A DNA stretch of 64,000 bases from Acutalibacteraceae bacterium (lineage in GTDB: Bacteria; Bacillota; Clostridia; Oscillospirales; Acutalibacteraceae). The stretch lies in assembly GCA_045601885.1 (NCBI GenBank), contig JAZSAN010000005.1, forward strand, positions 21,851 to 85,850, in the 5' to 3' direction. The notes under the pieces were generated by a model. It had not been told where the DNA came from and searched no databases. It was given only the letters and a program-made list of their open reading frames with translations. The translations under genes and the position numbers were made by a program. This document shows positions 767 through 61,847 of this stretch, piece after piece; positions within the stretch are counted from its first letter, which is position 1; each line of letters opens with the position of its first letter.

Positions 767-2134
767 ATGGCTTCTGTTGAAAAGCGAAGTAACGGTTATC
801 GTATTACAGTTTATGACGGTTATAATGATAGTGGCCGTCAAGTAAAACACCATAAAACCTGGAAACCTTCTGCCGATATGACCGAATATCAAATTAAAAA
901 AGAACTTGAAAGACAGTGCGTTGCTTTTGAGCAAGAATGTAAGAGCGGTCAAACATTATCCGGCGCAATAAAATTAAAAGAGTATATAGAACTTTGGTTT
1001 GATAAATATGCAGTATCTCATCTCAGACAAACAACACTTGATAATTATCACGATTTAAGTAAAAGAGTTTACAAAGAAATAGGACATATCAGAATAGATA
1101 GATTAAATCCTAATGACCTTAATAAATTTTATGCCTCATTGATGGGCTACACTCCGCAAAATCATAACAACTATGCTCTCAAATTTGACTTCAAATCAAT
1201 TTTATCCGAAAGAAACATTTCATATAGGAAGTTTGCCGAAATGTCAAATGTGGGTATCAGAACAGTAAATTCAATCGCTTCTGGCGATAATGTTTCTTTA
1301 CAAACAGCACATAAAATCGCTGATTGCTTAAAGCTCGATTTTGAAAAACATTTTAAACCTGCAAATAATCAAAAAGGCATATTATCTTCTAAAACCGTTA
1401 AACATTATCATAGTTTCTTATCATCAGCATTATCCAAAGCGGTAAAATGGGGTTATATTAAAGACAATCCTTGTGATAGAGTTGACCCGCCGCGAATCCA
1501 GCATAAACAAATAAAATGTTTCACGACAGATGAAGCAAAAATATTTTTAAAAGGATTATCACAAGAATGTTTAAAGTATCGCGTAATGTTTTCAATCCTA
1601 ATTTATACTGGACTTAGGCGCGGCGAACTATTAGGTCTTGAATGGTCTGATATTAACTTTGAAAAGAAAACAATTTCAATAAGTAGAACATCAGTACATA
1701 TACGTTCAAAAGGTATTGTTACAGATACTACAAAAAATGAATATTCAATCCGCGAAATTTCTATTTCAGATGAATTAATTGAACTTTTGAAATTATATTA
1801 TCAAGAGCAGCAAGAATTAAAAGCAAAGCTTGGAGATATGTGGGTTGAAACAAATAGAATTTGCATAAGAGATGATGGCAGCCCAATGGGTGTAGGCACG
1901 CCTTATAACACGTTACAAAAGTTACTAAAAAAATACAAATTGCCTGATGTTTCATTACATAGTTTAAGACATACTAACGCTACTATAATGATTGAATCAG
2001 GAACGGATTTAAAGACTACATCTACACGCTTAGGGCATTCTCAGGCAAGTACAACAATGAATATTTATGTTCATCAAATTAAATCATCAAATGAGCATGC
2101 AGCAGAAAATATATCTAAAGCATTAGCTATATAA
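767..2134 (+). CDS. int: Tyrosine site-specific integrase with an internal XRE-like HTH insertion
   Basis: It has an N-terminal arm-binding type start (MASVEKRSNGYRITVYDGY), a catalytic region with LRRGELLGLEW, HSLRHTNATIM and LGHSQASTTMNIYVH, and a good SD. Confidence 0.9.
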   Translation: MASVEKRSNGYRITVYDGYNDSGRQVKHHKTWKPSADMTEYQIKKELERQCVAFEQECKSGQTLSGAIKLKEYIELWFDKYAVSHLRQTTLDNYHDLSKRVYKEIGHIRIDRLNPNDLNKFYASLMGYTPQNHNNYALKFDFKSILSERNISYRKFAEMSNVGIRTVNSIASGDNVSLQTAHKIADCLKLDFEKHFKPANNQKGILSSKTVKHYHSFLSSALSKAVKWGYIKDNPCDRVDPPRIQHKQIKCFTTDEAKIFLKGLSQECLKYRVMFSILIYTGLRRGELLGLEWSDINFEKKTISISRTSVHIRSKGIVTDTTKNEYSIREISISDELIELLKLYYQEQQELKAKLGDMWVETNRICIRDDGSPMGVGTPYNTLQKLLKKYKLPDVSLHSLRHTNATIMIESGTDLKTTSTRLGHSQASTTMNIYVHQIKSSNEHAAENISKALAI

Positions 2135-2143
2135 ACAACGAAT

Positions 2144-2170
2144 ATCCCTACAGAGCAAAACTGTAGGGAT
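2144..2170. terminator. Bidirectional hairpin between int and the convergent 167-aa gene
   Basis: ATCCCTACAG-agcaaaa-CTGTAGGGAT is a perfect 10-bp stem. Confidence 0.6.
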
Positions 2171-2176
2171 ATAATT

Positions 2177-2680
2177 TTAATCATCGAAGGTATAACGGTA
2201 ATGCAAGTTATTATCATATATAAATTTGACAGACTTAATACCATTATAACCTTTTTTGAATTTTAATTTTGCAAGAATCATTTTGCGGTATTTTTCCTCT
2301 GCGAAAAAAGTGCTGCAATAAATAATAATCTTTTTATCCTTGCGTATCTCATATCTACCTCTTGGAAAGTAATAAAAAGACTTATTTTGAGTAATTGATT
2401 TATCGAAATCTTTCCATACATTTTCGTGGGAATATTTGTGTTTATCAAAAATTGCCTCTAACGAATTAAAGGAATACTTATATGTAATAAGCCGCTCATT
2501 ATTATATTTATCTTTTATTAACCAAAATACCCCTTTATTTAGGAAGTTCAAATCTTCATCCAAATATTCGCCGTCGGTGGTAATATCGGATTTTTCTTGT
2601 TTTTCTTCAATAATACTTTCAATGTATTCTGCAAGTTCTTCTCTCGTTCTTAAATTTTCGGTTAAAAAATTATAATCCAT
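2177..2680 (-). CDS. Hypothetical protein (167 aa), last gene of the minus-strand run
   Basis: Long ORF with an SD. It has an acidic N-terminus and an FYYFPRGRYEI motif. I do not recognise the family. Confidence 0.5.
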   Translation of the reverse strand: MDYNFLTENLRTREELAEYIESIIEEKQEKSDITTDGEYLDEDLNFLNKGVFWLIKDKYNNERLITYKYSFNSLEAIFDKHKYSHENVWKDFDKSITQNKSFYYFPRGRYEIRKDKKIIIYCSTFFAEEKYRKMILAKLKFKKGYNGIKSVKFIYDNNLHYRYTFDD

Positions 2681-2759: not shown

Positions 2760-3986
2760 TTATCTATTAATTATTGTACAATTAGGATAATTTATTTCAT
2801 ACCAAGCCATAACACATTTTAATTGTAATCTACTAATACAAGGTGCCACCGACCATAAGCTATTTACCTCACTAAAATAATTTTTAATCCACAATGGAAT
2901 ATTATATTCATCTAAAAGATATTCATATTTATTATGCTTGTTATTATGACTCCAAAAAGCATGTTTTATAAAATCAAAGGCGATATCATCGGACATACCA
3001 TATGAAGTTAAAACTTCAAAAAATTCATCTTTAGAAACAAAAAAATCGGGTTTATATATGTTTTCTAATGATTTTTTATGAGTAAATGAACCATTTAGAT
3101 AAGCATATATTCGGGTTAATGTTTTAAAATCACATTCGGTAATCGTTTCAATTTCTTCAGTAAAAGCTCTTCCTCTAGCATATTCTTTTTCACTTATAGA
3201 TTTATTTTCTATAAATTCAGCCAACATTTCATTCGAATCTTTTGCAATGTATTTTAAAACCTCAATATACACATCTTTTTTATATTGTTCTGAGGTAGGA
3301 AAAACTCCTGTTTTTTTAGCAATTATTCCAATGTTTTCACATATCTTAGAATCTGCGATTATGATTTCCTTGTATATTTTTTTATTACTATTAACCGTAC
3401 CAAATTTCGCATTTAATCGTTTTTTAATTAAATGTTTAATTGATGCCGCAACACTTAATGAAAAATCTGGAATTTGCGGATTATAAAACGAACCCCATAC
3501 AATTTCAAATGGTATATAAAAGCCATCTTTTTTTATTTCCCCTTCGTTTTTCTGACAAATTTTATCTGGCATATCTATTCCAAAACCACTTGTAGATATT
3601 TTAGTATCAAAACAAAATGTACAAATCGAATCAGAACAACGATAATGTGCTTTCATTGGATTGATATATGAAACTCCAAGCAAATAAGCGATTACAGAAC
3701 CAGAAAGCGCGCCTTGAATCATAACAGGATAACCTTCCTCTCTTGATAAGTCTGTAATTTCTTTTATCAGAGCGAAATGAAAGGCGGTACCCGTCTTTTT
3801 CATTAATTGAAGTTCGGTTTCTAATCGTCCGACAATAAAATTCATACCATAAAGTTCACCGGCTTTTCCACGGCATAGTTTAATAATTTGTTGCTCAATA
3901 TTCTTTATTTCTTCTTCAGTCGGACAGGTAAAACTCAACTTGCAGTAATTTGTATTTTTACCCGCTGATATAATTTTAATGTTCAT
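2760..3986 (-). CDS. PolC-like (DNA polymerase III alpha, Gram-positive type) palm/fingers fragment, apparently catalytically degenerate
   Basis: It matches PolC landmarks: HY-C...C, GFGIDMPDKIC...KDGFYIPFE, and a C-terminal PLWIKNYFSEVNSLWSVAPC...AWYEINYP resembling PolC's VP.WYI.SC.KIKYMFPKAHAAAY...AYFK. PolC's PDIDLNFS is PDFSLSVA here, and the central catalytic segment is missing. Confidence 0.6.
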   Translation of the reverse strand: MNIKIISAGKNTNYCKLSFTCPTEEEIKNIEQQIIKLCRGKAGELYGMNFIVGRLETELQLMKKTGTAFHFALIKEITDLSREEGYPVMIQGALSGSVIAYLLGVSYINPMKAHYRCSDSICTFCFDTKISTSGFGIDMPDKICQKNEGEIKKDGFYIPFEIVWGSFYNPQIPDFSLSVAASIKHLIKKRLNAKFGTVNSNKKIYKEIIIADSKICENIGIIAKKTGVFPTSEQYKKDVYIEVLKYIAKDSNEMLAEFIENKSISEKEYARGRAFTEEIETITECDFKTLTRIYAYLNGSFTHKKSLENIYKPDFFVSKDEFFEVLTSYGMSDDIAFDFIKHAFWSHNNKHNKYEYLLDEYNIPLWIKNYFSEVNSLWSVAPCISRLQLKCVMAWYEINYPNCTIINR

Positions 3987-3998
3987 TTTGTTGCTCCT

Positions 3999-4673
3999 TT
4001 ATTTTACATAATATTCCTTGAAATCATTTAAACAAATACAACCCAAAATTCTACCAAAAACCGCCCCACAATCAATAGCAATATGATTATTTTTTATATA
4101 AATTTTTCCATCATATTTAGGGCCAATAAATATTGTTGGGGTGTGCCCGGTTACTATATATTTATTATCATAATATTTTTTATCATATTCAGGGGCGCCG
4201 GCAATAAAATCTTCACGCTCTAAATTGCAATCGAGCAACATTCTATCCTTTTGAGGTATAGTATGAGAAAGCCAAAATTTATTACCATCAACACTTATAT
4301 CTTTAAATATAGTAAACCGACTAATGTAGTTTATTATTTCAAATTGTTCACGCTCAGATAACTCTAGAAACGCATTATTTGTCGGTTCCCCGCCAATCAT
4401 CATCCACATTTTATATCCTAAATCAAGATAATCAAATTCTTCTCTGTTATATATCTTTTTAAACATTCTAAGCGCGGTATAATCGTGGTTACCTAATATA
4501 GGAATAACATTTTTTCTTTTCATCATATCTTGATATATTTTTATGCCGTCAGGTCCTCTGTCAACTATATCACCTAAAATATATAAAGTATCTTCATCAC
4601 TAAATTTTATCTTTTCAAGCATTTTTATATACAAATCATAACATCCGTGTAAATCACTCATTGCGTAAATCAT
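3999..4673 (-). CDS. PPP-family metallophosphoesterase (lambda phosphatase / PrpE / ApaH-like)
   Basis: Motifs present: SDLHG, GDIVDRGPDG, GNHD, GHTP. Confidence 0.85.
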   Translation of the reverse strand: MIYAMSDLHGCYDLYIKMLEKIKFSDEDTLYILGDIVDRGPDGIKIYQDMMKRKNVIPILGNHDYTALRMFKKIYNREEFDYLDLGYKMWMMIGGEPTNNAFLELSEREQFEIINYISRFTIFKDISVDGNKFWLSHTIPQKDRMLLDCNLEREDFIAGAPEYDKKYYDNKYIVTGHTPTIFIGPKYDGKIYIKNNHIAIDCGAVFGRILGCICLNDFKEYYVK

Positions 4674-4780: not shown

Positions 4781-5296
4781 TTAAACACATATTTCGTGAA
4801 TTAAGTTTCTATAAAAATCAATTTGATTTATTTTGGAAAAGTCTGTTTTTCTCTCGAGTTTTTCTCGAATGGGTTTAATCTCTTCTTCACACATATCATA
4901 ATAGGTCATATGATATAGTATTCCACCTAATATAGCATCAACGCCATATTTTTCAATACTACACTCATGAACAGGAATACCTAATGCCTGACCCCAATTC
5001 CAACCAAATTCAGTTATACCTTTTAAACTATAATTATTGGCAACAACTTTATCCATATCCGCAAGTGCAACATAAGGAAAGTTTTCATATTTTTCATGCG
5101 GTACAGCAATATAACCAAAATCTTCACCGCACAAATAACACCTTGTGGGAAGATACTCCTTGATATCATCTATTATTAAGCGATATCTTTCTATCAAAGT
5201 GTTTAAATCATCTTCCGGATATTTAGCCAACTTACAAATTGCTTTCGCAACACCTTCGACAGTGCATTCATAAATCAAATTCTCTGCATAGTACAT
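4781..5296 (-). CDS. Hypothetical protein (about 171 aa)
   Basis: The ORF-track start is 5311, but GAGGAG-7nt-ATG favours 5296. I recognise no family with confidence. Confidence 0.5.
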   Translation of the reverse strand: MYYAENLIYECTVEGVAKAICKLAKYPEDDLNTLIERYRLIIDDIKEYLPTRCYLCGEDFGYIAVPHEKYENFPYVALADMDKVVANNYSLKGITEFGWNWGQALGIPVHECSIEKYGVDAILGGILYHMTYYDMCEEEIKPIREKLERKTDFSKINQIDFYRNLIHEICV

Positions 5297-5364
5297 AAAA
5301 ATTCTCCTCACACAGTATTTTTATTTAAACTTTTTTAAGTTTTAATTTGTACCAATCACAGCAA

Positions 5365-6559: not shown

Positions 6560-7021
6560 TTATGCGACATTGAAATCGTCGGCAAATTGAAATTTAAAAT
6601 CCAAACTTACGGCATAACGAGTAATAATCATGGCGTCAATTAGTCTACAACCTTCGCAATCAATTACACATTGTGGTGCTCCGAGCTCAAAAAGTCTGAA
6701 TAATCTTCTCACTCTGCATTCAACCATTTCATCTTCTAATTGCAGCTCTAAACATTGAACAACACAATCAGTCTCATATATTCCCACATTATCTTCTAAT
6801 TGAGAATATAATATTTCAAAATCATCAATTACGTTCTGCAAATCGTTTTTATCCCAATTCATAGTATAGGATTCAAAATGTTGCTTCTCATATTCATCTG
6901 AGAAAGGGTCTTCATTTCTACGTGACAAAGTCAGCATATTTTCATTTGTGTTTTCAAACAAAAGTTTTGCATACTCAGTCGGGGTAAACTCATAACCATC
7001 ATTAAAAAATTTAATCTCCAT
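6560..7021 (-). CDS. Hypothetical acidic protein (153 aa)
   Basis: Long ORF with an SD (AAGAGG). It is rich in D/E and has several Cys. Confidence 0.5.
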   Translation of the reverse strand: MEIKFFNDGYEFTPTEYAKLLFENTNENMLTLSRRNEDPFSDEYEKQHFESYTMNWDKNDLQNVIDDFEILYSQLEDNVGIYETDCVVQCLELQLEDEMVECRVRRLFRLFELGAPQCVIDCEGCRLIDAMIITRYAVSLDFKFQFADDFNVA

Positions 7022-7128: not shown

Positions 7129-7890
7129 TCACAAAGAATCATAAAATTTAATAACCTTATCTATAAACTCTTTTACCATAGATTTATCAATCAACGCTTT
7201 GTGTCTTTGATAATATTCTTCAATTTTCCTTAAAGTGCGTATAAACTGCGGAATCGTAAGTTCCGTTTCTGTTAGAAGCATTAATGCTTCATTTTCAATT
7301 TTCACGCAAGAATTTTCTAAAAAGTTTGTTACCATTTCAATACGCTTTTCTTTGGCGGTAAAACCTGTATCAGCAAAAAGTGCCTCTCCAAAAATAAGTT
7401 TATATAAAACTTCTAATTCATGAGGATAACAATTTGATGCCAACAACACCTTCAGTCCATTTGAAACTTTTTTTAAAATCAATTTTGCAATTTCTTCTTG
7501 TGTTGTGGTTTTATTTAGCAAATAATCAACATCATCAATTATTAGAAGTTGCACTTCTTCAATTTCGTTTAGTCGTGTTTTTCGCTTGAATATAAAACTT
7601 AGATATTCTTCGCCCAATTCTTTGGCGTTAAGCGAACAAACACTGTGTTTTGTTTTGAATTGATTTTCCGTAGCTCTAAGAAGATGAGTTTTGCCTCGTC
7701 CAATTGGACCATATAACCATAATATCTTTATATCGTAAGGCAATGCTGAAAAAAATTCTTTACAAGCTACAACTGCAAAACGGTTAGTAGAATCTTCTAT
7801 GAATGTATCAAATGTAAATTCCTTTATGTCCAATTTCGCACAATCTACAGGTGACATACTAATATCGCCACTACAATTTTTAATCTCCAT
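7129..7890 (-). CDS. DnaA/Hda-like AAA+ ATPase lacking the DnaA DNA-binding domain
   Basis: Walker A is LYGPIGRGKTHLL and Walker B is LLIIDDVDYL. A DnaA domain-III-like TTQEEIAKLILKKVSNGLKVLLASN follows. At 253 aa it has no domain IV. Confidence 0.75.
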   Translation of the reverse strand: MEIKNCSGDISMSPVDCAKLDIKEFTFDTFIEDSTNRFAVVACKEFFSALPYDIKILWLYGPIGRGKTHLLRATENQFKTKHSVCSLNAKELGEEYLSFIFKRKTRLNEIEEVQLLIIDDVDYLLNKTTTQEEIAKLILKKVSNGLKVLLASNCYPHELEVLYKLIFGEALFADTGFTAKEKRIEMVTNFLENSCVKIENEALMLLTETELTIPQFIRTLRKIEEYYQRHKALIDKSMVKEFIDKVIKFYDSL

Positions 7891-8060: not shown

Positions 8061-8095
8061 GTGGGAAAATTATTTCCTACATTATGCGATATAAT
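8061..8095 (+). promoter_or_regulatory. Operator palindrome copy 3 plus a -10 immediately upstream of the WYL gene
   Basis: GTGGGAAAATTATTTCCTAC (8061-8080) is followed 9 nt later by TATAAT (8090-8095). Confidence 0.5.
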
Positions 8096-8145: not shown

Positions 8146-9696
8146 ATGGTTCCGGAGTTAAAAAGGCTAAAAGTACTATATGTTTATGAAATTCTTTCAA
8201 ATTCGGGTGAAGAAATGTCCCGAGCAGAAATTAACAGAATTTTATGGGACAAATATAAGATAAAAGAAACACCAAAAACCTTAAAAAAATTATTAGATGA
8301 TATGGTTTACGCAGAACTTATCGAAACCGGAGAACAGAAAGATAGAAAAACCAAAAAAATAGATGAAAACGGTAAATTGATAGAAGAAGATACAACAATG
8401 ACCATGGGATATTTTGTTGAGAAAGATTTTTCTGATGATGAGCTGTTATGGATTATACATAACACTATTTTTTCTAAGCAACTTACCGAAAACAAATCTA
8501 ATAATTTAGTTAAAAAACTTCTTAAATTAGGAACTAACGGCTTAAAGCAAAAAGTTGGTAGCGTTGAAGGTATGAAACAGTTTTACCATACCCCTAATCC
8601 CGCAGTATCTAATAATATTGAAACTTTAAGTGATGCAATTCACGAAGATAAAACCGTTCAATTCATTTATACTGAATACAAAAAAGATAAACAGTTACAT
8701 CCGCTATCTGAAGAGCCGATTACTGTTAAACCTGCGCGTATGGTTCCGCTTAATGGATTTTATTATCTAATAGCCTATGAAACAGAGAGCGAGACTATCC
8801 AGCACTACCGAATAGACAAAATTAAAAATCTTAAAAAGACTGATATAAAAACCGATTTCAGTTCCAAAAACAGTCGCATAAACATTGATGAATATTTATC
8901 TTCACATTCTTTTATGTTTGCAGGTAAACCTATACCGGTAAAAATCAAAGTCCCCGAAGATAAAATCGGTCTGGTTATTGATAGGTTTGGTGATAAAATT
9001 CATATTTATCAGGATGATAGCGACTATGTATCAATAGGTTTTAATTCTAACGAATCAGACCTTTATGTATGGGCGCTTGAAAATGGTGATTATGTCGAAG
9101 TAATCGAACCGCAGCATTTAAGAAATAAAATCAGAAATACCGTACAATCAATGACAAGATGTTATTTACAATCAAATGAAGACATTTATTTTAATGCTAT
9201 AAAAACCGCAAGAGAAACCCAAATATTTTATTGTGAAAATTTCAATTTTGCTAACAGAGAAGAATGGCTTCAACTTACAGATATTGAAAGCCTTGACCTT
9301 GACAATAATGGTTTTACCGATATTTCTATATTAAAACGCTTTAAAAAACTTGAATTTTTAAAAATTCAAAATGAACATATATCAGATATTTCTGTAATAA
9401 AAGAGTTACCCTCTTTGGGAGATTTATGTTTGCGAAATACAGATGTTGATAGCATTGAAGGTTTGCGCAATAGCAATATCGGATTTGTGGAATTATTAAA
9501 TAATAAAAACATTACAGATTATAGTCCGCTTTATGATATTAAGAAATTAAGATTGCTCACCATCGATAATAAATCTGCAGAGAAAATTGATACAGAAAGA
9601 TTACTTAAAAAATATGACCCACTTGAAATTGTAATAGAATATCCGGATAGAGAAGATAAACATTTATTTTCCAAATCACTTTTAGAAGAAAATTAA
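8146..9696 (+). CDS. WYL-domain transcriptional regulator (wHTH-WYL-WCX) with a C-terminal leucine-rich-repeat domain
   Basis: It has an N-terminal wHTH. The WYL-type core is VQFIYTEY...NGFYYLIAYETESETIQHYRIDKIKNL. The C-terminus has about five 22-aa internalin-type LRRs (LDLDNNGFTDISILKRFKKLEFLKIQNEHISDISVIKELPSL...). Confidence 0.75.
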   Translation: MVPELKRLKVLYVYEILSNSGEEMSRAEINRILWDKYKIKETPKTLKKLLDDMVYAELIETGEQKDRKTKKIDENGKLIEEDTTMTMGYFVEKDFSDDELLWIIHNTIFSKQLTENKSNNLVKKLLKLGTNGLKQKVGSVEGMKQFYHTPNPAVSNNIETLSDAIHEDKTVQFIYTEYKKDKQLHPLSEEPITVKPARMVPLNGFYYLIAYETESETIQHYRIDKIKNLKKTDIKTDFSSKNSRINIDEYLSSHSFMFAGKPIPVKIKVPEDKIGLVIDRFGDKIHIYQDDSDYVSIGFNSNESDLYVWALENGDYVEVIEPQHLRNKIRNTVQSMTRCYLQSNEDIYFNAIKTARETQIFYCENFNFANREEWLQLTDIESLDLDNNGFTDISILKRFKKLEFLKIQNEHISDISVIKELPSLGDLCLRNTDVDSIEGLRNSNIGFVELLNNKNITDYSPLYDIKKLRLLTIDNKSAEKIDTERLLKKYDPLEIVIEYPDREDKHLFSKSLLEEN

Positions 9697-13259: not shown

Positions 13260-13342
13260 TGGTGCGGGTGACAGGACTTGAACCTGCACGAATGCTCACC
13301 AGATCCTAAGTCTGGCGCGTCTGCCAATTCCGCCACACCCGC
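13260..13342 (-). tRNA. tRNA-Leu (anticodon UAG), long variable arm, encoded CCA
   Basis: The reverse complement GCGGGTG..CCAGA-CTTAGGA-TCTGG..GGTTCAAGTCC..CACCCGC-A-CCA folds as a class II cloverleaf. Confidence 0.9.
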
Positions 13343-54629: not shown

Positions 54630-56867
54630 TTAATCTCCTAACTGTGTCCATGTATTTCGTCTATTATGGCTTGTTCTAATACAAGTTGAAAATGCTTGAG
54701 GTTCTGCTAATAACAGACATCTCTTTTTTGCTCTGGTTAACAATGTGTAAAGCATACAGTTGTCAAGCAATTTGTAATGAGTATTATCTATAATACCGAT
54801 AACTGTTTGTTTTCCGGCACCTTGTAACTTATGTACTGTCATAGCATAAGCAAGGTCAAGTTGTTCTAATTCTTTTAATTGATATGTAATCTTTTTATTT
54901 TCTGCGAACTTAACATCACAACATTTTGTCTTGCCATTTTCATATATATCAGTTACATATCCTATTTCGCCATTAAAAACATTTTTGTCGTAATCATTAA
55001 CCGTTTGCATTACCTTGGCACCAACTCTAAACTCGGTATCGTTGAGTTTAATAAATCGTGTTTCATCAGGTAATAACTTGTTTTGAATCACTTTGTTTAA
55101 TTCTGATGTACTATTTAAACAATCCTTTTTTCGAGGAACGGCTATTACTACATTGTCTATACCGTCTGTTTCGATTGATTTTAAATATGTATTAACGGCT
55201 ATTTTAAATAACTGTTCTCTGTTATTTCTAAACATATAATACATATCTTGTAATTCCCCGTGAATGATTTTAGGTTGTGCATTTTCGGTGACTGGATTTA
55301 CATTTTCTCTAATGCGATTTGCGTCCGATAATATACCCGATTTAGCCGCCTGTCGCATTGGTTTTGTCAAGTTGTTTACACATTCTTTGTTTAATATATC
55401 TATTAAATCAGAGAATGTATTGCCATATCCTATTGGTGGTAACTGTTTGTGGTCGCCAGATACAATAAATCTTGTGTTTTTACTAAGAGCTTTAACTAAT
55501 GCCAAGAATAAACTTGAACTTACCATAGAACCCTCATCAAGAAAAACAACGTTTGAATATATAGGATTATCTTCGTTAAAAGTAAATTTACCCTCGCCTT
55601 GACAACCCAACATTCTATGTATTGTACTTGCCGAGAAACCAGTTGCTTCTGTAATTCTTTGTGAAGCCATGGCGCTCAAAGCACAAGCAGATATTGAATA
55701 ATTGTTCATTTGATATGCTTTAAGCACAGCTCTCATAATACTACTTTTACCCGTACCGGCCTTGCCAGTGATAAAGCTTACAGTGTTTTGTAAGGTTTTA
55801 TAGATTACCTTTCGTTGTTCTGGCACATATTCAAAACCTTGCTCTTCTTCGGCTACTTTAATAGCATTCTCAATTTGTTCGTCCGTGAATGAAATGTTGC
55901 TGATTTGCTTACTTTTATCAATTAAAAGTCTGTGTATTTTATTTTCAACATTGTAATAATGTTTTAGACCAACTTTTCCGTCCTCGCAATGTAAAAAAGA
56001 ATCGGAAGCAAAAAGTCTGTCCATATGTTCCATGCACTGCGGAACATTGTTGCTGATTGCACTTTTTAATATACTCTCAGACACCCAAGTGTGTCCTTCA
56101 CCGTCGCCAAGTTCACTCAAATAATATCTTGTAAAAGCAACTAAACGCTCCAAAGAATTGTATAATTCAGGTTTAAGCTTCATTGCTAAATCATCAATCT
56201 TTTTAAAACCCAATCCGCTAATTTTTGTCATTATATAAGGATTGTCTAAAAGTTGTTGCTTAAGCAATGCTGCATTCGGTTCTTCGTTTTGCAGTTTTTT
56301 AATCATTGCAAATGTAACACCAAGAGGTTTGAGCATTACAATAATATCTGACATTATATAGTTGTCAAAAATCTTTTCTTTAATTCTATTCCAAGTAAAA
56401 GCCTGAACGCCTTTTACTTTACTGTAGTCAATTTCGTCAACCTTACCACTTACTACGTCTTCAACGATATTTGGGTATGCGGCAAGTAAATTGTTAGCAA
56501 CGTCTTCAGATATTAACGACTTTAAATAAATCATTTGCGATTCTTTGCTTTGAGGAATTAGTGCAGTGATTGAAATCGGTTCGTATTGCCAACCAAAACG
56601 ATTATCTTTTTTAAGTCTACATTTTAGTCCATATTGACCACCGATTTGTAATCTTTGCATCTTTCCAGAAAGAGTGCTTATTTTATCAGTTCTTGTTTTA
56701 TCAGCTTCGTCAAAAGGATTTAAAGATGGTTGAACACCTACCGGCATTTCATCTGCATTACCTGAGAATTGATAAACACCCCAACAAGTATCGTCGCTAT
56801 AATATCTTTCATCAACGATTGTTATTTTTAATTCATAAACTATATCTGTATCAAAATTCTCGATTAT
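54630..56867 (-). CDS. RecD2/Dda-like SF1B helicase; start probably non-canonical
   Basis: GKAGTGKS, VVFLDEGSMV, SGDHKQLPPIG, AMTVHKLQGAG, LYTLLTRAKK. The frame is open for 46 codons upstream of the ATG at 56747. Confidence 0.8.
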   Translation of the reverse strand: MIENFDTDIVYELKITIVDERYYSDDTCWGVYQFSGNADEMPVGVQPSLNPFDEADKTRTDKISTLSGKMQRLQIGGQYGLKCRLKKDNRFGWQYEPISITALIPQSKESQMIYLKSLISEDVANNLLAAYPNIVEDVVSGKVDEIDYSKVKGVQAFTWNRIKEKIFDNYIMSDIIVMLKPLGVTFAMIKKLQNEEPNAALLKQQLLDNPYIMTKISGLGFKKIDDLAMKLKPELYNSLERLVAFTRYYLSELGDGEGHTWVSESILKSAISNNVPQCMEHMDRLFASDSFLHCEDGKVGLKHYYNVENKIHRLLIDKSKQISNISFTDEQIENAIKVAEEEQGFEYVPEQRKVIYKTLQNTVSFITGKAGTGKSSIMRAVLKAYQMNNYSISACALSAMASQRITEATGFSASTIHRMLGCQGEGKFTFNEDNPIYSNVVFLDEGSMVSSSLFLALVKALSKNTRFIVSGDHKQLPPIGYGNTFSDLIDILNKECVNNLTKPMRQAAKSGILSDANRIRENVNPVTENAQPKIIHGELQDMYYMFRNNREQLFKIAVNTYLKSIETDGIDNVVIAVPRKKDCLNSTSELNKVIQNKLLPDETRFIKLNDTEFRVGAKVMQTVNDYDKNVFNGEIGYVTDIYENGKTKCCDVKFAENKKITYQLKELEQLDLAYAMTVHKLQGAGKQTVIGIIDNTHYKLLDNCMLYTLLTRAKKRCLLLAEPQAFSTCIRTSHNRRNTWTQLGD

Positions 56868-59800
56868 ATAAGCACTCCTTTCTGCTTAGTTTGTTGTAAC
56901 CATACCTCGTAAGGCTTTAATTTTTCTAACACTACCCTATCTTCGTTATCTTTTTTAACCAATAGAGCAAGTTGCTGACCAGTCTTAACCATATCTTCAT
57001 ATTCTTTTAATTTTGAATGCCATACAATACATTCAATTAATCCAAAGGAAGAATAGATATTCATAAACGCAAATTGTTTTTTATTTTTATCTTTCTTCTT
57101 TTGTACCTTTGCTACAATGCCAACAATAGTACACTTATTGCCAATTTCAACTTCGCTAAAAGGTTCTAAGTATTCATAAGCTTTGTCAAATGGGTTATTG
57201 TTAAGGAATATTTGCAAACTTTCAAATTCCCAGAACTCTTCGTTTCTTAAATATTTGTCAAAGCACTCCGATTGAAACGCCTTAAGTTTTTCTTGTTCGT
57301 TAATTTCAAAGTTTTGTAATCGCACTTTGTTGTAATCTGTAAGTAAGCGTTCCTTATCGACCTTTTTGCCATCTCTATAATCGTCAACATTTAATCCAAA
57401 TGCTTCAAGTTTACTATACGGTGACGGAACGGAAGAGACAGGTTTAAAATTTCCCTTAGTATAGGTTGACATTAAATATTTCATTAACGCCTTCTTTTTA
57501 TCCTTACAGGGTATTGCTCCAGATTTAATTAACGAAATGATTTGCGTCTTCTTTGGATTTACTCTGTCTATAAAGTCTTGCATTGAAGCGAAATTGCAAT
57601 TTCTGTTATTTAAAATTTCTGTAGCAAAGTTTTCTCCAATACCTTTTATTGCCGATAATCCAAATAAAATTGCTTCATTATTAATTGAAAAATTCATTTG
57701 CGATTTGTTAATATTAGGTGGTAGAACTTTAACTTCAAATTGTTTTGCATCTAAGATATATTTATTAAGCATTCCTGCTTTATCTTTATTAAGGTTAAAT
57801 AATGCCTTAAAGAAGTACATAGGATAATATGTTTTTAAGAATGCAGTTTGGAAGCATATTACGGCGTAACTGAAGGAATGCGATTTGTTAAATAGATATC
57901 CACCTTTTTGAGATAGGTCATCACTAATCATTTTTGCAATTTCTTCACTATATCCGTTATCAATAATCTCTTGATATAACTTTGCCGATTCTTCCTTAAC
58001 CAACTCAATATTCTTTTTACCGATTGCTTTACGGAAAAGGTCGGCACCACCATAACTTCGTCCACCAAATGTACGAACAACATCAAGCAACTGTTCTTGA
58101 TAAATCATACAACCATATGTAGACTTTAAAATAGGTTCCATATCAGGATGAATGTACTTGACTTTACTTGGGTCGTGTTTACATTCTATATATTCTTCAA
58201 GTGCACCCATAGAATCGGGACGATATAGAGCAAGGACTGCCGATAAATCTTCAAGAGAATTTGCTTGAAGTCTGATTAACAAATCTTTCATACCGGCACT
58301 TTCCACTTGGAATACACCATTGGTTAGCGCTTTGTTGAGTAACTCGTATGATTTAGTATCATTCTCAAAAACAGGATTGTTAATATTAATATCGTACTCG
58401 TCGATATTAAGGTCTGTCTGAATTTCCTTAATCATATTTAGGGTTTGTACACCCAAAATATCGAATTTAATAATGCCTATTTCTTCAATAATTCTCTTAT
58501 CAACTTGAATAACGTGTTCGCCATCTCCGCCGAGTTTCATAGCCATATAGTCATTAATATCGGTATCAACAATGCCTACACCACCAGAGTGACAAGAAAC
58601 AGTTTTAATTCTTCCGCTTAATTTACTTGCTATATCAAACAATTCTGCGTACTGAGGATGTTCTGCAACAAATTTTTCATTATTTTCAAGACACTCAGCA
58701 AATGTATCGTAAGAAAATCTCTTGCTCAATTTGTCCATTTCGTTGTAATTAAAGCCAAGAACCTTTCCAACGTCTTTAATTGCAACGACAGGTGTGATAT
58801 ATGAAAAGTTAATTATCTGACAAACACGATTTTCGCCATACTTATTAATTAAATAGTTAATAACCGTTTCTCTATCAGATACATCTGTGTCAGTGTCCGG
58901 CATTGAAATTCTTTCTGGATTTAAGAAACGCTCAAAAATCAGACCGTACTTAATTGGGTCAAGGTCGGTAATATGCAAACTGTAGCAAACTAAACTTCCT
59001 GCACAACTGCCTCTGCCCGGCGCAACCATAATATTTTTTGACCTTGCAAAGTTAATAAAATCCCAAACAATCAAAAAGTATCCGTCAAAGCCCATAGTAT
59101 GAATGGTTTCTAATTCGTAGTTAATTCTTTCTCTATAAATCTCTTGCTTTTCTTTAGGAAATTTATCAAAACCGCGCTCTACCCAACCCTCGTTAACGAG
59201 ATGTTTTAAATATGTATAGTTATCATTAAAACCTTCAGGTAGCGGAAAAGTAGGCAACTTAGGGCTTTGAAACGGCATATTTACCTCTTCAATCATATCG
59301 GCAATAATATTTGTATTTGCCAAACCGACATCAACATTTTCTTTGCCGATTTGATTGTCCATAATGTCGTGAATTTCTTCTTCGCTTTGCAAATAACAAC
59401 CTTCATATGTTTCGCTCATTGTTTCTGAATCGTGAGCGATTTGTACGTGCCTTGCCTGATAATATAAATCTTCTTTTGTAGCAGCATGGCTATCAGTTGT
59501 AATGATATAAGGAGTATCAGTAGCTTTTGAAAGATGAAGAATCTTTTGATTATATATTTCTTGGTCAATGTGATTATGGCTCTGCATTTCTAAATAGAAA
59601 TAAGGAAATATTGATTTGTATTCATTGATATATTCAATACACTTATTCAAATCGCTTTCTCTTGCTATTTTAGAAGCTAAACAAGCTGAAGAAACAATAA
59701 GATTGTTTGCATAAGGTGCAAAGTCACTTAGCTGAACACGAGGCTTGTAATAAAAGCCTTCCAAATTAGATTTAGTAACTAATTTATTGATTGCTTTTCT

Positions 59801-60082
59801 TCCCTCTTCGTTCTTTGCGAGAACAACTAAGTGAAAATACTTACTCTCCTTATCCTTAATTTCAGTATCAAAGCATTCATAAAACTCAACACCATAAATC
59901 ATTTTGATATCTGGGTAATCTTTTTTAATCTTATCAAAATAGCACCATGAATACTCATTTCCGTGCTCTGTGATAGCAAAGGCCTTAAGGCCTATTTTTT
60001 TTGCTTGTTCTAAATACTCTTTTGGAGTTGCATAACCATCTAATAAACTGTAATGTGAGTGGTTGTGTAACGCACTATACAA
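56864..60082 (-). CDS. dnaE: DNA polymerase III alpha subunit, DnaE-type (element-encoded)
   Basis: PHP domain (HNHSHYSLLDG), catalytic GRGSCAGSLVCY...PDTDTDV, and a C-terminal OB region. TTG start. Confidence 0.95.
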   Translation of the reverse strand: MYSALHNHSHYSLLDGYATPKEYLEQAKKIGLKAFAITEHGNEYSWCYFDKIKKDYPDIKMIYGVEFYECFDTEIKDKESKYFHLVVLAKNEEGRKAINKLVTKSNLEGFYYKPRVQLSDFAPYANNLIVSSACLASKIARESDLNKCIEYINEYKSIFPYFYLEMQSHNHIDQEIYNQKILHLSKATDTPYIITTDSHAATKEDLYYQARHVQIAHDSETMSETYEGCYLQSEEEIHDIMDNQIGKENVDVGLANTNIIADMIEEVNMPFQSPKLPTFPLPEGFNDNYTYLKHLVNEGWVERGFDKFPKEKQEIYRERINYELETIHTMGFDGYFLIVWDFINFARSKNIMVAPGRGSCAGSLVCYSLHITDLDPIKYGLIFERFLNPERISMPDTDTDVSDRETVINYLINKYGENRVCQIINFSYITPVVAIKDVGKVLGFNYNEMDKLSKRFSYDTFAECLENNEKFVAEHPQYAELFDIASKLSGRIKTVSCHSGGVGIVDTDINDYMAMKLGGDGEHVIQVDKRIIEEIGIIKFDILGVQTLNMIKEIQTDLNIDEYDININNPVFENDTKSYELLNKALTNGVFQVESAGMKDLLIRLQANSLEDLSAVLALYRPDSMGALEEYIECKHDPSKVKYIHPDMEPILKSTYGCMIYQEQLLDVVRTFGGRSYGGADLFRKAIGKKNIELVKEESAKLYQEIIDNGYSEEIAKMISDDLSQKGGYLFNKSHSFSYAVICFQTAFLKTYYPMYFFKALFNLNKDKAGMLNKYILDAKQFEVKVLPPNINKSQMNFSINNEAILFGLSAIKGIGENFATEILNNRNCNFASMQDFIDRVNPKKTQIISLIKSGAIPCKDKKKALMKYLMSTYTKGNFKPVSSVPSPYSKLEAFGLNVDDYRDGKKVDKERLLTDYNKVRLQNFEINEQEKLKAFQSECFDKYLRNEEFWEFESLQIFLNNNPFDKAYEYLEPFSEVEIGNKCTIVGIVAKVQKKKDKNKKQFAFMNIYSSFGLIECIVWHSKLKEYEDMVKTGQQLALLVKKDNEDRVVLEKLKPYEVWLQQTKQKGVLI

Positions 60083-60086
60083 TTAA

Positions 60087-61847
60087 TCACCATCCTGCTT
60101 CTTCATCATCTTCAGTATCTTCGTCAGTACCCTCTTTAGTACCATTAAAATTAATATCTTTAATATTTACTTGAATCGTTCTTACACCATTAAAATCGTT
60201 GATTTTAGGTTCACCCACCAAGTCAAACATAACAATTTCATTATCGTCCCAACAGTTGTCAAACCATTTTAATAGCTCATTTGCGCCAAATATAATAAAC
60301 TCAATATCATTAAAAGAGAATTGCAATGTATCAGCATTTTTTCCTTTGACTGCAAAATCTTGTTTTCTTAACTCTATGTTTTCAATCGCTATTAAAGGTG
60401 TATCAATGCCTTTAGCCACAATATTTTCTAACTGTGCCATTTCATTAATTAAAACAAAATCAACATCATTCATATCTTTAATGAAATCAACACGGTATGT
60501 AGTGTCATAAATAACGTCTTTTAATCTTTCATTAAGTTCTTGAATGCCATTTTCTACATTATCAGCGTTAATACTTATTCCGGCAGCATTAGGATGTCCC
60601 ATACAGTAATTAAAACTTGGACACGAGTTGATAATGTCTTTAAAACTATCTATAGGACTATTATCAAAGTTTCTCATACTACCACCAAAAACCTTTGTAT
60701 CATCATCGGTTTTCATTTCCTTTAATAAAATACAAGGTTTATTAAAGTGTTCAGCAACTTTAATGGCTACTACGCCAGTTAATCCTTCATCTAAAATTGT
60801 TGTAACATCTGCGACAACAACCTTGTTTTCTGGGTTTTGTTGACCAAGAACTTCGATAATTTTTGCAATACCACTTTTACGACTGTTATCTTGACGTGAT
60901 TTTGCGTTTTTACTTATCCTTGCCGCACGGTCAAAAATATTCTCTTTTATCGTTTCGGTTTGACCACGTTTTTTGTAATCGAACTCTTCATAGTCCCCTA
61001 TCATTGCTCTAAAAACAAGTTCTTTATCTTCGTCCGAACCGATACGAATCATACCATTAAGGACTGGGGTTAAATACCATTGGACATTATGTATGTTAAT
61101 TTTGCCTTTTATACTAAATTCTTGTGCTTTAATTAAAGCCTTTAAGAAATCATTTTGAATATTACTCAAGCCTTTATCAACAATATGTTTTGTCTCATAC
61201 GAACGCATATCCATATCGTCCGAAATGTTTGCCCAAGCACATAAGTCCAAAAACTCGTCAGCATATTCAACCCAAAATTCACTATCTAAAGCAAGTAAAA
61301 ATTTATATACAATTCCTGCGCCGGAGAAATCTTTATTTTCATATTTTTCGCTTGTTTGATTGTTTACAATAATTGCATTAGGGTTATTAAATTCTTTTTC
61401 GTGATGGTCAAGAATTATAATGTCTATTCCCTGTTCTTTTATTTTCTTACATTGTTCGTAATCATTAGTAGATGCATCGGGAATGATGAGCAATTTGGTA
61501 TCTTCAGGGATAATAACGTCTTCGCTTAAACCGTGCGCCTTTGCTTTTTTATGCAGTATATAAGAGACTGGATAATCGCTATCAAGCTTTTTAATATACA
61601 GATACATCATTGCTGCCGAACAATATCCGTCCACGTCAGAATCTACTAAAATTGCAATAGGAGATTTGTTGTTAAAATGCTTTGCAAAACATTCTACTGC
61701 AACATTCATATTTGAAAGCAAACTGTAATTAATAATTTCACTATCTGAAAGGTTTAAATATCTATTTACATCCTTGATACCACGATTTTCTAAAACTCGT
61801 ATCTTAACATTTGCATTATTTGAATTTTTATATAATTTATATTTCAA
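60087..61847 (-). CDS. DHH/DHHA1 phosphoesterase (RecJ-like exonuclease, SPbeta YorK-like) with an acidic C-terminal tail
   Basis: DSDVDGYCS, IILDHHE, DHHA1 GHPNAAG, and the tail ...TDEDTEDDEEAGW. TTG start. Confidence 0.8.
   Translation of the reverse strand: MKYKLYKNSNNANVKIRVLENRGIKDVNRYLNLSDSEIINYSLLSNMNVAVECFAKHFNNKSPIAILVDSDVDGYCSAAMMYLYIKKLDSDYPVSYILHKKAKAHGLSEDVIIPEDTKLLIIPDASTNDYEQCKKIKEQGIDIIILDHHEKEFNNPNAIIVNNQTSEKYENKDFSGAGIVYKFLLALDSEFWVEYADEFLDLCAWANISDDMDMRSYETKHIVDKGLSNIQNDFLKALIKAQEFSIKGKINIHNVQWYLTPVLNGMIRIGSDEDKELVFRAMIGDYEEFDYKKRGQTETIKENIFDRAARISKNAKSRQDNSRKSGIAKIIEVLGQQNPENKVVVADVTTILDEGLTGVVAIKVAEHFNKPCILLKEMKTDDDTKVFGGSMRNFDNSPIDSFKDIINSCPSFNYCMGHPNAAGISINADNVENGIQELNERLKDVIYDTTYRVDFIKDMNDVDFVLINEMAQLENIVAKGIDTPLIAIENIELRKQDFAVKGKNADTLQFSFNDIEFIIFGANELLKWFDNCWDDNEIVMFDLVGEPKINDFNGVRTIQVNIKDINFNGTKEGTDEDTEDDEEAGW

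Follow-up and report, generated by a model that had tools for sequence, protein, structure and literature searches.

Among catalytically dead homologues of polymerases, those of the Y family, with ImuB as the example, serve as adaptors, and others form structural modules in the B family, represented by the inactivated C-terminal half of eukaryotic Pol epsilon and by inactivated archaeal PolB groups. Replicases may furthermore contain calcineurin-like phosphoesterase subunits, such as the PolD small subunit DP1 and the eukaryotic B-subunits. For bacteria, a survey of polymerases from 2026 describes the C family as consisting of DnaE1-3 and PolC only, discarding truncated sequences, and reports inactive homologues for other polymerase families only (PMC12926913). 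A full-text literature search of our own found no description of a dead bacterial C-family polymerase homologue. Here we analyze a 408-amino-acid protein, called pseudo-PolC in the following, which is encoded in a stretch of 64,000 nucleotides from an Acutalibacteraceae bacterium (contig JAZSAN010000005.1; the window, whose first letter is position 1). Pseudo-PolC is almost certainly a homologue of the palm and fingers of PolC that is catalytically inert, and its family is apparently undescribed and the first pseudo-polymerase that we could find for family C. The parts of the gene are the following:

2760..3986, minus strand: pseudo-PolC, a palm-and-fingers PolC protein of 408 aa, thumb-less, PHP-less and predicted to be catalytically inert
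3516..3650, minus strand: Zn-finger insert, residues 113-157, with cysteines C117, C122, C125 and C144; the second CxxC reads CQKN
3453..3470, minus strand: former DxD catalytic strand, PDFSLS, residues 173-178
2829..2861, minus strand: remodelled pocket segment from S376 to R386, with W378, C383 and R386 conserved in the family

The open reading frame of pseudo-PolC is intact and starts with ATG, preceded at a distance of 7 nt by an AGGAG Shine-Dalgarno sequence that directly follows the TAA stop codon of the preceding gene. Residues 27-200 correspond to a PolC region that begins with the RLxxEL helix, includes the Zn-finger insert and reaches as far as the DxD strand, and they match the PolC of Enterococcus faecium (PDB 9qpc) with an E-value of 3.6e-18 and that of Geobacillus (PDB 3f2b) with 1.2e-14. 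With 35.9 bits against a gathering threshold of 23.9, the protein belongs to the Pfam family PF07733 (DNA_pol3_alpha) at the domain level, the match spanning only positions 22-129 of the 260 in the profile. The full-length models are matched well below their cut-offs, with 88.9 bits (E 1.6e-25) for NF001688, where the equivalog cut-off is 873, and 72.3 bits for TIGR01405, where it is 1043. An exhaustive HMMER search over 1.84 billion representatives returned 49 matches below 1e-30, mostly stand-alone proteins of 300-420 aa, which we treat as the pseudo-PolC family; full-size PolCs start at about 1e-28 to 1e-30 in the same ranking.

The C-terminal half shows weak similarity to PolC in a single-sequence search, and profile methods establish its homology to the PolC fingers, which extends as far as the AWYKVxYP helix. 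When the 49-member family alignment was compared by hhalign with a 10-member PolC alignment, family columns 36-363 were matched to PolC columns 795-1269 in one block of 323 columns with a probability of 99.9% and an E-value of 4e-32. Both halves of the family hidden Markov model (HMM) were moreover matched by all 39 PolC-like proteins tested. An AlphaFold2 model computed on the 49-member alignment reached a mean predicted local distance difference test score (pLDDT) of 94.9 and a predicted TM-score of 0.93. Searched with Foldseek, this model found significant PDB matches among C-family polymerases only, PolC ranking first (E 2.5e-16 and query TM 0.71-0.73 to 9qrl and 3f2b). The Zn-finger insert is modelled with a pLDDT of about 81 and is missing in some 70% of the family members. 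The initial annotation of this locus, made by eye, had aligned the protein to PolC from RLE.EL through the Zn-finger insert and again in the fingers; the first block is borne out by the 9qpc, PF07733 and NF001688 matches and the second by hhalign, the family HMM and the 39 PolC-like proteins, so that the similarity to PolC, which had been left for alignment and structure prediction to settle, is significant by both.

Pseudo-PolC retains the fingers of this fold and, of the palm, the first half and the last strand. According to the alignments, the thumb, the HPGG segment and the TH(F) strand were removed by a clean internal deletion, and a further, shorter deletion affects the GIPEFGT loop. All 49 family rows are gapped over PolC alignment columns 242-357, and hhalign places an identical gap over thumb and HPGG. 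The PHP, OB and HhH domains are missing as well, together with the C-terminal tail including the QxSLF clamp motif; PF07733 is the sole Pfam match of pseudo-PolC, whereas the host PolC carries PHP and HHH_6, and none of the 49 members has a QxxLF-type clamp motif in its last 20 residues. The absence of PHP, OB and clamp-binding tail noted in the initial annotation is thereby confirmed.

The catalytic PDIDLNFS of PolC reads PDFSLSVA in pseudo-PolC, as had been noted before. Of the catalytic aspartates, the first is kept (D174), so that in this strand only the second is replaced, by S176. The third position is taken by I209 according to both hhalign and L-INS-i. The earlier view that the whole central active-site block is absent therefore holds for the thumb, HPGG and TH(F) segments and fails for the strand of the third aspartate, which is present. 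Across the family, aspartate is found at the D174 position in 14-15 of the 49 members (31%), at the second catalytic position (176) in two (4%) and at the aligned third position in three (6%), which answers the question raised at the outset whether the losses are conserved in homologues. The Asn of DLN and the His of KAH are kept in no member (0%), the Lys of KxD in 6% and the Arg of the GS motif in 8%, and the VR of VRKG, which supplies basic residues of the fingers, is deleted in the family. The reference set comprised 71 columns in which 37 active PolC or short-PolC sequences show at least 90% conservation; of these, the family has lost all active-site columns and kept structural ones, including R54, E58, G85, G92, P173, L290, L326 and P364. 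As neither the catalytic Asp triad nor the KxD lysine, the GS-motif arginine and the basic residues of the fingers are conserved, the family should be incapable of templated synthesis. Judged from the alignment, catalytic inertness is a trait of the whole family and not a peculiarity of the window copy.

In place of the lost residues, the family has acquired conserved positions of its own, namely C38 (97%), W378 (78%), C383 (85%) and R386 (76%). By sequence alignment, W378, C383 and R386 correspond to F1276, A1281 and Y1284 of PolC, all three belonging to the four-residue nucleobase and inhibitor pocket within the YMFPKAHAAAY motif (PMC12592400). The PDB chain numbering is offset by 22 from that of the paper, chain D994/D996 being D972/D974 there. 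A conserved pocket at the former site of the nascent base pair suggests that the protein may still hold a nucleic-acid end or a nucleotide-like ligand.

The family is under selection, as a ratio of nonsynonymous to synonymous substitution (dN/dS) of 0.15-0.22 between close pairs indicates purifying selection. The relatives of 300-420 aa fall into at least 50 clusters at 50% identity, and dozens of full-length relatives extend down to about 25% identity; the broad family alignments contain no conserved 7-mer, and a word-index protein search retrieved only five members. Together with the family-wide decay of the active site, the dN/dS values support the earlier description of a conserved but inactive PolC core. 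Its distribution is patchy. Among 200 genomes of the same family we found one other carrier (G052), in 400 genomes of the order there was no match below 1e-35, and a search of the sole other genome of the same genus (G093) did not find the gene. A tblastn search of phage and plasmid collections gave no family member, its matches being true PolC genes in their N-terminal half only, and a pattern scan of the viral contigs in IMG/VR gave none either. The named carriers are metagenome-assembled genomes (MAGs) labelled Acutalibacteraceae, Agathobacter, Roseburia, Neglectibacter and [Ruminococcus] torques, and the family travels on mobile elements of gut Clostridia.

Regarding its origin, a quickly built maximum-likelihood tree (IQ-TREE, LG+G4, 338 columns, DnaE as outgroup) joins the 49 dead proteins in one clade with an SH-aLRT support of 100 and a long stem of 0.88. 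This clade is nested (support 97) among the short PolC proteins, which lack the exonuclease and are truncated at the C-terminus, and it lies near the DnaB-fused enzymes found on contig C2 of the same genome (G000:C2) and at loci L020 and L021. Pseudo-PolC is 34% identical to element-type PolC and 27% to the host PolC, and short PolCs end about 10-45 residues past the AWYKxxYP helix, near the end point of the dead family. Tree placement, similar end point and identities together indicate that the family arose from mobile-element polymerases and not from the host PolC, a descent against which the nesting in the short-PolC clade speaks. Two full-size short PolCs have mutated catalytic strands: P0120 (856 aa), the sister of the dead family, keeps PHP and thumb and reads PVFSLKVS, and P0117 (802 aa), also with PHP and thumb, reads PYFDLN. 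Intermediates of inactivation thus exist.

The host PolC itself, on contig C17 (L072:1814-5647), is only 1277 aa long; its Pfam domains are PHP, DNA_pol3_alpha, finger and HHH_6, with no DnaQ/RNase_T exonuclease between the PHP halves. In some relatives, the PolC frames are about 1476-1485 aa long. The region 56864-61847 of the window encodes, on the minus strand, a further C-family polymerase, a DnaE-type protein of 1072 aa with an intact PDTDTD motif. Directly upstream of it lies a 586-aa protein judged by eye to be RecJ-like, and this region has a lower GC content and probably belongs to another mobile element or prophage.

Pseudo-PolC is the seventh of eight co-directional genes that form an operon running from 7890 down to 2177. 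The context of 14 pseudo-PolC loci was compared, and genes recurring with pseudo-PolC are referred to as its cassette. The operon and its surroundings consist of the following features:

767..2134, plus strand: tyrosine integrase (int), preceded by Rep (2-493) and a Xis-like gene (493-681)
2142..2172: bidirectional terminator hairpin with a 12-bp stem, between int and the operon end
2177..2680, minus strand: c3, 167 aa, unrecognised fold, last operon gene and recurrent cassette member
3999..4673, minus strand: gene 6, PPP-type metallophosphatase (lambda/NinI-like), 224 aa, its stop 12 nt before the pseudo-PolC start
4781..5311, minus strand: gene 5, DUF6557 protein, 176 aa; the same family adjoins pseudo-PolC at locus L018
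5365..5640, minus strand: gene 4, c7, SLOG/YpsA-like, 91 aa, C-terminally short; linked by transitive BLAST, its relative on contig C2 matching PF10686
5651..6439, minus strand: gene 3, c1, 262 aa, with an FPTPFKKGDIL motif, unrecognised fold, recurrent cassette member
6560..7021, minus strand: gene 2, 153-aa protein, no relatives detected in the libraries searched
7129..7890, minus strand: gene 1, DnaA/Hda/DnaC-like AAA+ ATPase with a 49%-identical paralogue in an island on contig C2
7971..7990: palindrome GTGGG-N10-CCCAC between operon and WYL gene, in their divergent promoter region
8146..9696, plus strand: WYL-WCX regulator with a leucine-rich-repeat tail, divergent from the operon
13260..13342, minus strand: tRNA-Leu, whose 3' 23 nt (13260-13282) are repeated at G000:C5:17263

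The left copy of the tRNA-Leu repeat is situated 4.6 kb beyond the left end of the window and directly follows a host transporter gene with its terminator. The 23-bp direct repeats bound an integrated element of 17.9 kb that comprises Rep, Xis, Int, the operon and the WYL gene, and they bear out the initial assignment of pseudo-PolC to a mobile element. The hairpin at 2142-2172, after the last operon gene, is the sole terminator-like hairpin on the minus strand. A further copy of the promoter palindrome precedes int (698-717), and another, with a single mismatch, is located at 8061-8080; the number of exact copies expected by chance is 0.01. The integrase has an internal HTH_3/HTH_26 match (residues 143-193) between its SAM-like and catalytic domains. 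In the phosphatase, the motifs SDLHG, GDIVDRG, GNHD and GHTP are all intact, which places it in the PPP family, in line with matches to phrog_246 (E 4.3e-39), PF00149 (E 3.5e-17) and the PrpA/B-type model NF008516 (E 8.9e-13). For c1, the AlphaFold2 model is poor (pLDDT 62) and Foldseek gave no significant match. At 91 aa, compared with 133 aa at locus L020, the SLOG-like protein is short of the last third of its domain and is perhaps degenerate. PADLOC-DB 2.0 yielded no match for pseudo-PolC, the phosphatase, c1, c3 or the DUF6557 protein; two other proteins gave marginal matches (E about 0.006-0.009), and WYL models match the regulator.

Phosphatase, pseudo-PolC and c1 occur together in six loci (the window, L001, L016, L020, L021 and L022), four of which also have c3. 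At L020 and L021, an active-looking short PolC is encoded one to five genes downstream in the same direction; one of these enzymes is a DnaB fusion of 1055 aa, and the other has 736 aa. At both loci the cassette directly precedes a primase/helicase/polymerase module of the element, as it does in the C2 island described below. On the deeper branches, YpsA/SLOG neighbours occur at L013 and L018, the latter also having the DUF6557 and a DnaA-like gene, while DnaB-like fragments lie near pseudo-PolC at L013 and L017 and a UDG-like gene at L017. Upstream of the deepest-branch pseudo-PolC, in a [Ruminococcus] torques bin, an open-reading-frame fragment (L070:2-184) carries an HCxxGxxRS signature of Cys-type phosphatases, which may be a non-homologous substitute for the PPP phosphatase in this single case at a contig end. 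RNA-repair-type genes adjoin two pseudo-PolC loci, namely RtcB directly downstream of c1 (L001:12210-13331) and a convergent Thg1-like gene paired with an AAA_33 kinase (L010:11973-13176). Between L020 and L021 (9285-11134), the pseudo-PolC proteins are 97.9% identical while the adjacent phosphatase genes share only 77% (dS 2.2), which points to recombination within the cassette.

A second, larger island in the genome of the window lies on contig C2 at about 183.9-222.9 kb (L003, L073) and ends at a serine recombinase. Its core is a tight run of genes for a SLOG protein (PF10686), c3, a 120-aa open reading frame, the phosphatase, a stand-alone PHP protein, DnaG primase and a DnaB-PHP-PolC fusion, so that the PHP protein fills the slot held elsewhere by pseudo-PolC. 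The c3 of this island is 60-65% identical to that of L001 and L021, and its phosphatase is 58% identical to the one in the window. The DnaB_C-PHP-PolC fusion has 1010 aa with an intact PDIDLN and without exonuclease or HhH, and it is the only short PolC of this genome, located on another contig than pseudo-PolC. The island also encodes the 49%-identical DnaA-like paralogue, a WYL regulator, an HD dNTPase-like protein, a DUF2779/Cas4-like protein and two DUF262 proteins. It is an element of a self-replicating type with a helicase-polymerase fusion.

Taken as a whole, the evidence leans slightly towards pseudo-PolC being an inert descendant of a short PolC that has become a non-catalytic subunit of its cassette. 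Its more specific assignment as the binding subunit of a replication-associated accessory cassette is a tentative proposal. Pseudo-PolC would then contribute binding or a scaffold, but no catalysis, to a small cassette formed with the SLOG protein, c3, the PPP phosphatase and c1. This cassette would belong to the element's replication region, positioned in full-size elements directly upstream of their own PHP, primase and DnaB-PolC genes, and it would persist without the replicase in reduced elements such as the one in the window. With 12 nt between the genes and the Shine-Dalgarno sequence located at the phosphatase stop codon, pseudo-PolC is probably paired with the lambda-type phosphatase, to which it is probably translationally coupled and with which it would most likely work. 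As the palindrome of the operon promoter recurs upstream of int and the WYL gene is divergent, the cassette may be switched on together with excision, int and cassette responding jointly through the shared operator-like palindrome and the WYL regulator. The remodelled pocket may contribute by holding a nucleic-acid end or a nucleotide-like ligand.

Several points weigh against this proposal. The phosphatase adjoins pseudo-PolC in only six of the 14 loci, all from one sub-branch, and c1 and c3 have no recognisable fold. PADLOC, PHROGs and NCBIfam offer no functional family for pseudo-PolC, c1, c3 or the 153-aa protein. The pocket argument is drawn from sequence alignment and not from coordinates. 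Five other carrier genomes furthermore contain host PolC and DnaE only and no short PolC. Pseudo-PolC thus appears able to do without a short PolC encoded in its own genome, subject to the caveat that mobile elements may be unbinned in MAGs, and these five genomes speak against an obligate subunit of short PolC.

The same five genomes, along with the patchy occurrence of the gene (one other carrier in 200 family genomes, none in 400 of the order), would also suit a decoy or dominant-negative protein used in conflicts with phages or between mobile elements. The dead core and the DnaA-like ATPase would here mimic replisome parts, either poisoning the PolC-type replicases of rivals or phages or serving as bait for replisome-attacking phage proteins, the output being delivered by the phosphatase or another cassette protein. 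A divergent WYL regulator gene adjoins the operon, and regulators of this type often control defence systems. It also combines several degenerate homologues of replication proteins, SLOG proteins recur beside pseudo-PolC, and the nearby DUF262 proteins of the C2 island resemble type IV restriction enzymes. We nevertheless consider a decoy unlikely, as no operon protein has a PADLOC match above noise, the cassette contains no recognisable toxin-like effector, and the searches of phage, plasmid and viral-contig collections did not find pseudo-PolC. At L020 and L021 it moreover shares a transcript with an active-looking polymerase that is itself of the kind to be poisoned, which argues against self-poisoning. 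That the entire operon forms a guard or decoy module for immunity or exclusion, in which the dead PolC core and the DnaA/Hda-like ATPase bait replisome hijackers while phosphatase and SLOG protein signal, appears very unlikely; if true, replication proteins would here make up a bacterial counterpart to the integrated decoys of plant immune receptors.

A titration of host PolC partners such as the clamp, tau, helicase or SSB, by which host replication would be slowed or redirected, had been put forward in the initial annotation, and the retained PolC-like surface of palm and fingers as well as the benefit that a mobile element could draw from manipulating host replication speak for it. We give this idea little credence, since the parts of PolC with a known role in binding partners or duplex DNA (QxSLF clamp motif, HhH, OB and N-terminal domains, thumb) are those that are missing, the protein is closer to element-type than to host PolC and branches within mobile-element enzymes, and a cassette of its own surrounds it. 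Titration of the clamp in particular is disfavoured by the lack of C-terminal clamp motifs in all 49 members, and we know of no partner that binds the PolC regions retained. Embedded in its own cassette, pseudo-PolC probably has partners encoded beside it. Residual or new chemistry, in which D174 and D212 bind one metal ion for nucleotidyl transfer or hydrolysis and not for templated polymerisation, is hardly plausible: both residues are invariant in the four closest members and the glycine-rich loop G92/G96/S97 is moderately conserved, but aspartate is rare at the three catalytic positions across the family (14-15, two and three of 49), and the triphosphate-holding Arg and Ser and the VR(K)G of the fingers are lost. 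A decaying remnant without function, as the large internal deletions and lost catalytic residues might suggest, can practically be dismissed, given the family-specific conservation of C38, W378, C383 and R386. A pseudogene is ruled out by the intact frame with its good ribosome-binding site, the dN/dS of 0.15-0.22, the model pLDDT of 94.9 and the dozens of full-length relatives.

The family shows that a C-family replicative core can lose thumb, PHP and active site and yet stay under selection, and that such stripping occurs on mobile elements carrying their own PolC-type replication modules. With about 400 aa, pseudo-PolC is a compact and confidently modelled object for asking what a non-polymerising palm-fingers scaffold binds, and it draws attention to the clostridial integrative elements that encode DnaB-PolC fusion replicases.

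Compared with PolC of Geobacillus kaustophilus (3F2B) and Enterococcus faecium (9QPC), pseudo-PolC shares the N-terminal half of the palm, the Zn-finger insert, the last palm strand and the fingers, and like the clostridial short PolCs it ends just after the AWYKxxYP helix. It differs from PolC in its length of about 400 aa instead of 600-1450 aa, in the lack of PHP, thumb and HPGG, and in catalytic residues that are not conserved, so that it is a PF07733 protein by domain membership while lacking every functional hallmark of a C-family replicase. The phosphatase encoded next to it recalls DP1 and the eukaryotic B-subunits, where a metallophosphoesterase is likewise encoded or assembled beside a polymerase or polymerase-like protein. 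It is, however, of the PPP (lambda/NinI/PrpA/ApaH) type with intact motifs and not Mre11- or DP1-like, and a role in the replisome is hypothetical. Unlike ImuB, pseudo-PolC belongs to family C and not Y, has no clamp-binding motif and no RecA-like partner, has undergone large structural deletions and lacks a constant active partner polymerase, such a partner being present at L020 and L021 only and in none of the five carrier genomes. The inactivated B-family modules differ in being fused to or assembled with an active polymerase, whereas pseudo-PolC is stand-alone cargo of a mobile element. With ImuB it nevertheless has in common a polymerase fold without the catalytic carboxylates that is kept under selection as a presumed binding module, in some loci (L020, L021) within one operon with an active C-family polymerase, and with the B-family modules it shares the survival of a replicative-polymerase core as a non-catalytic structural part.

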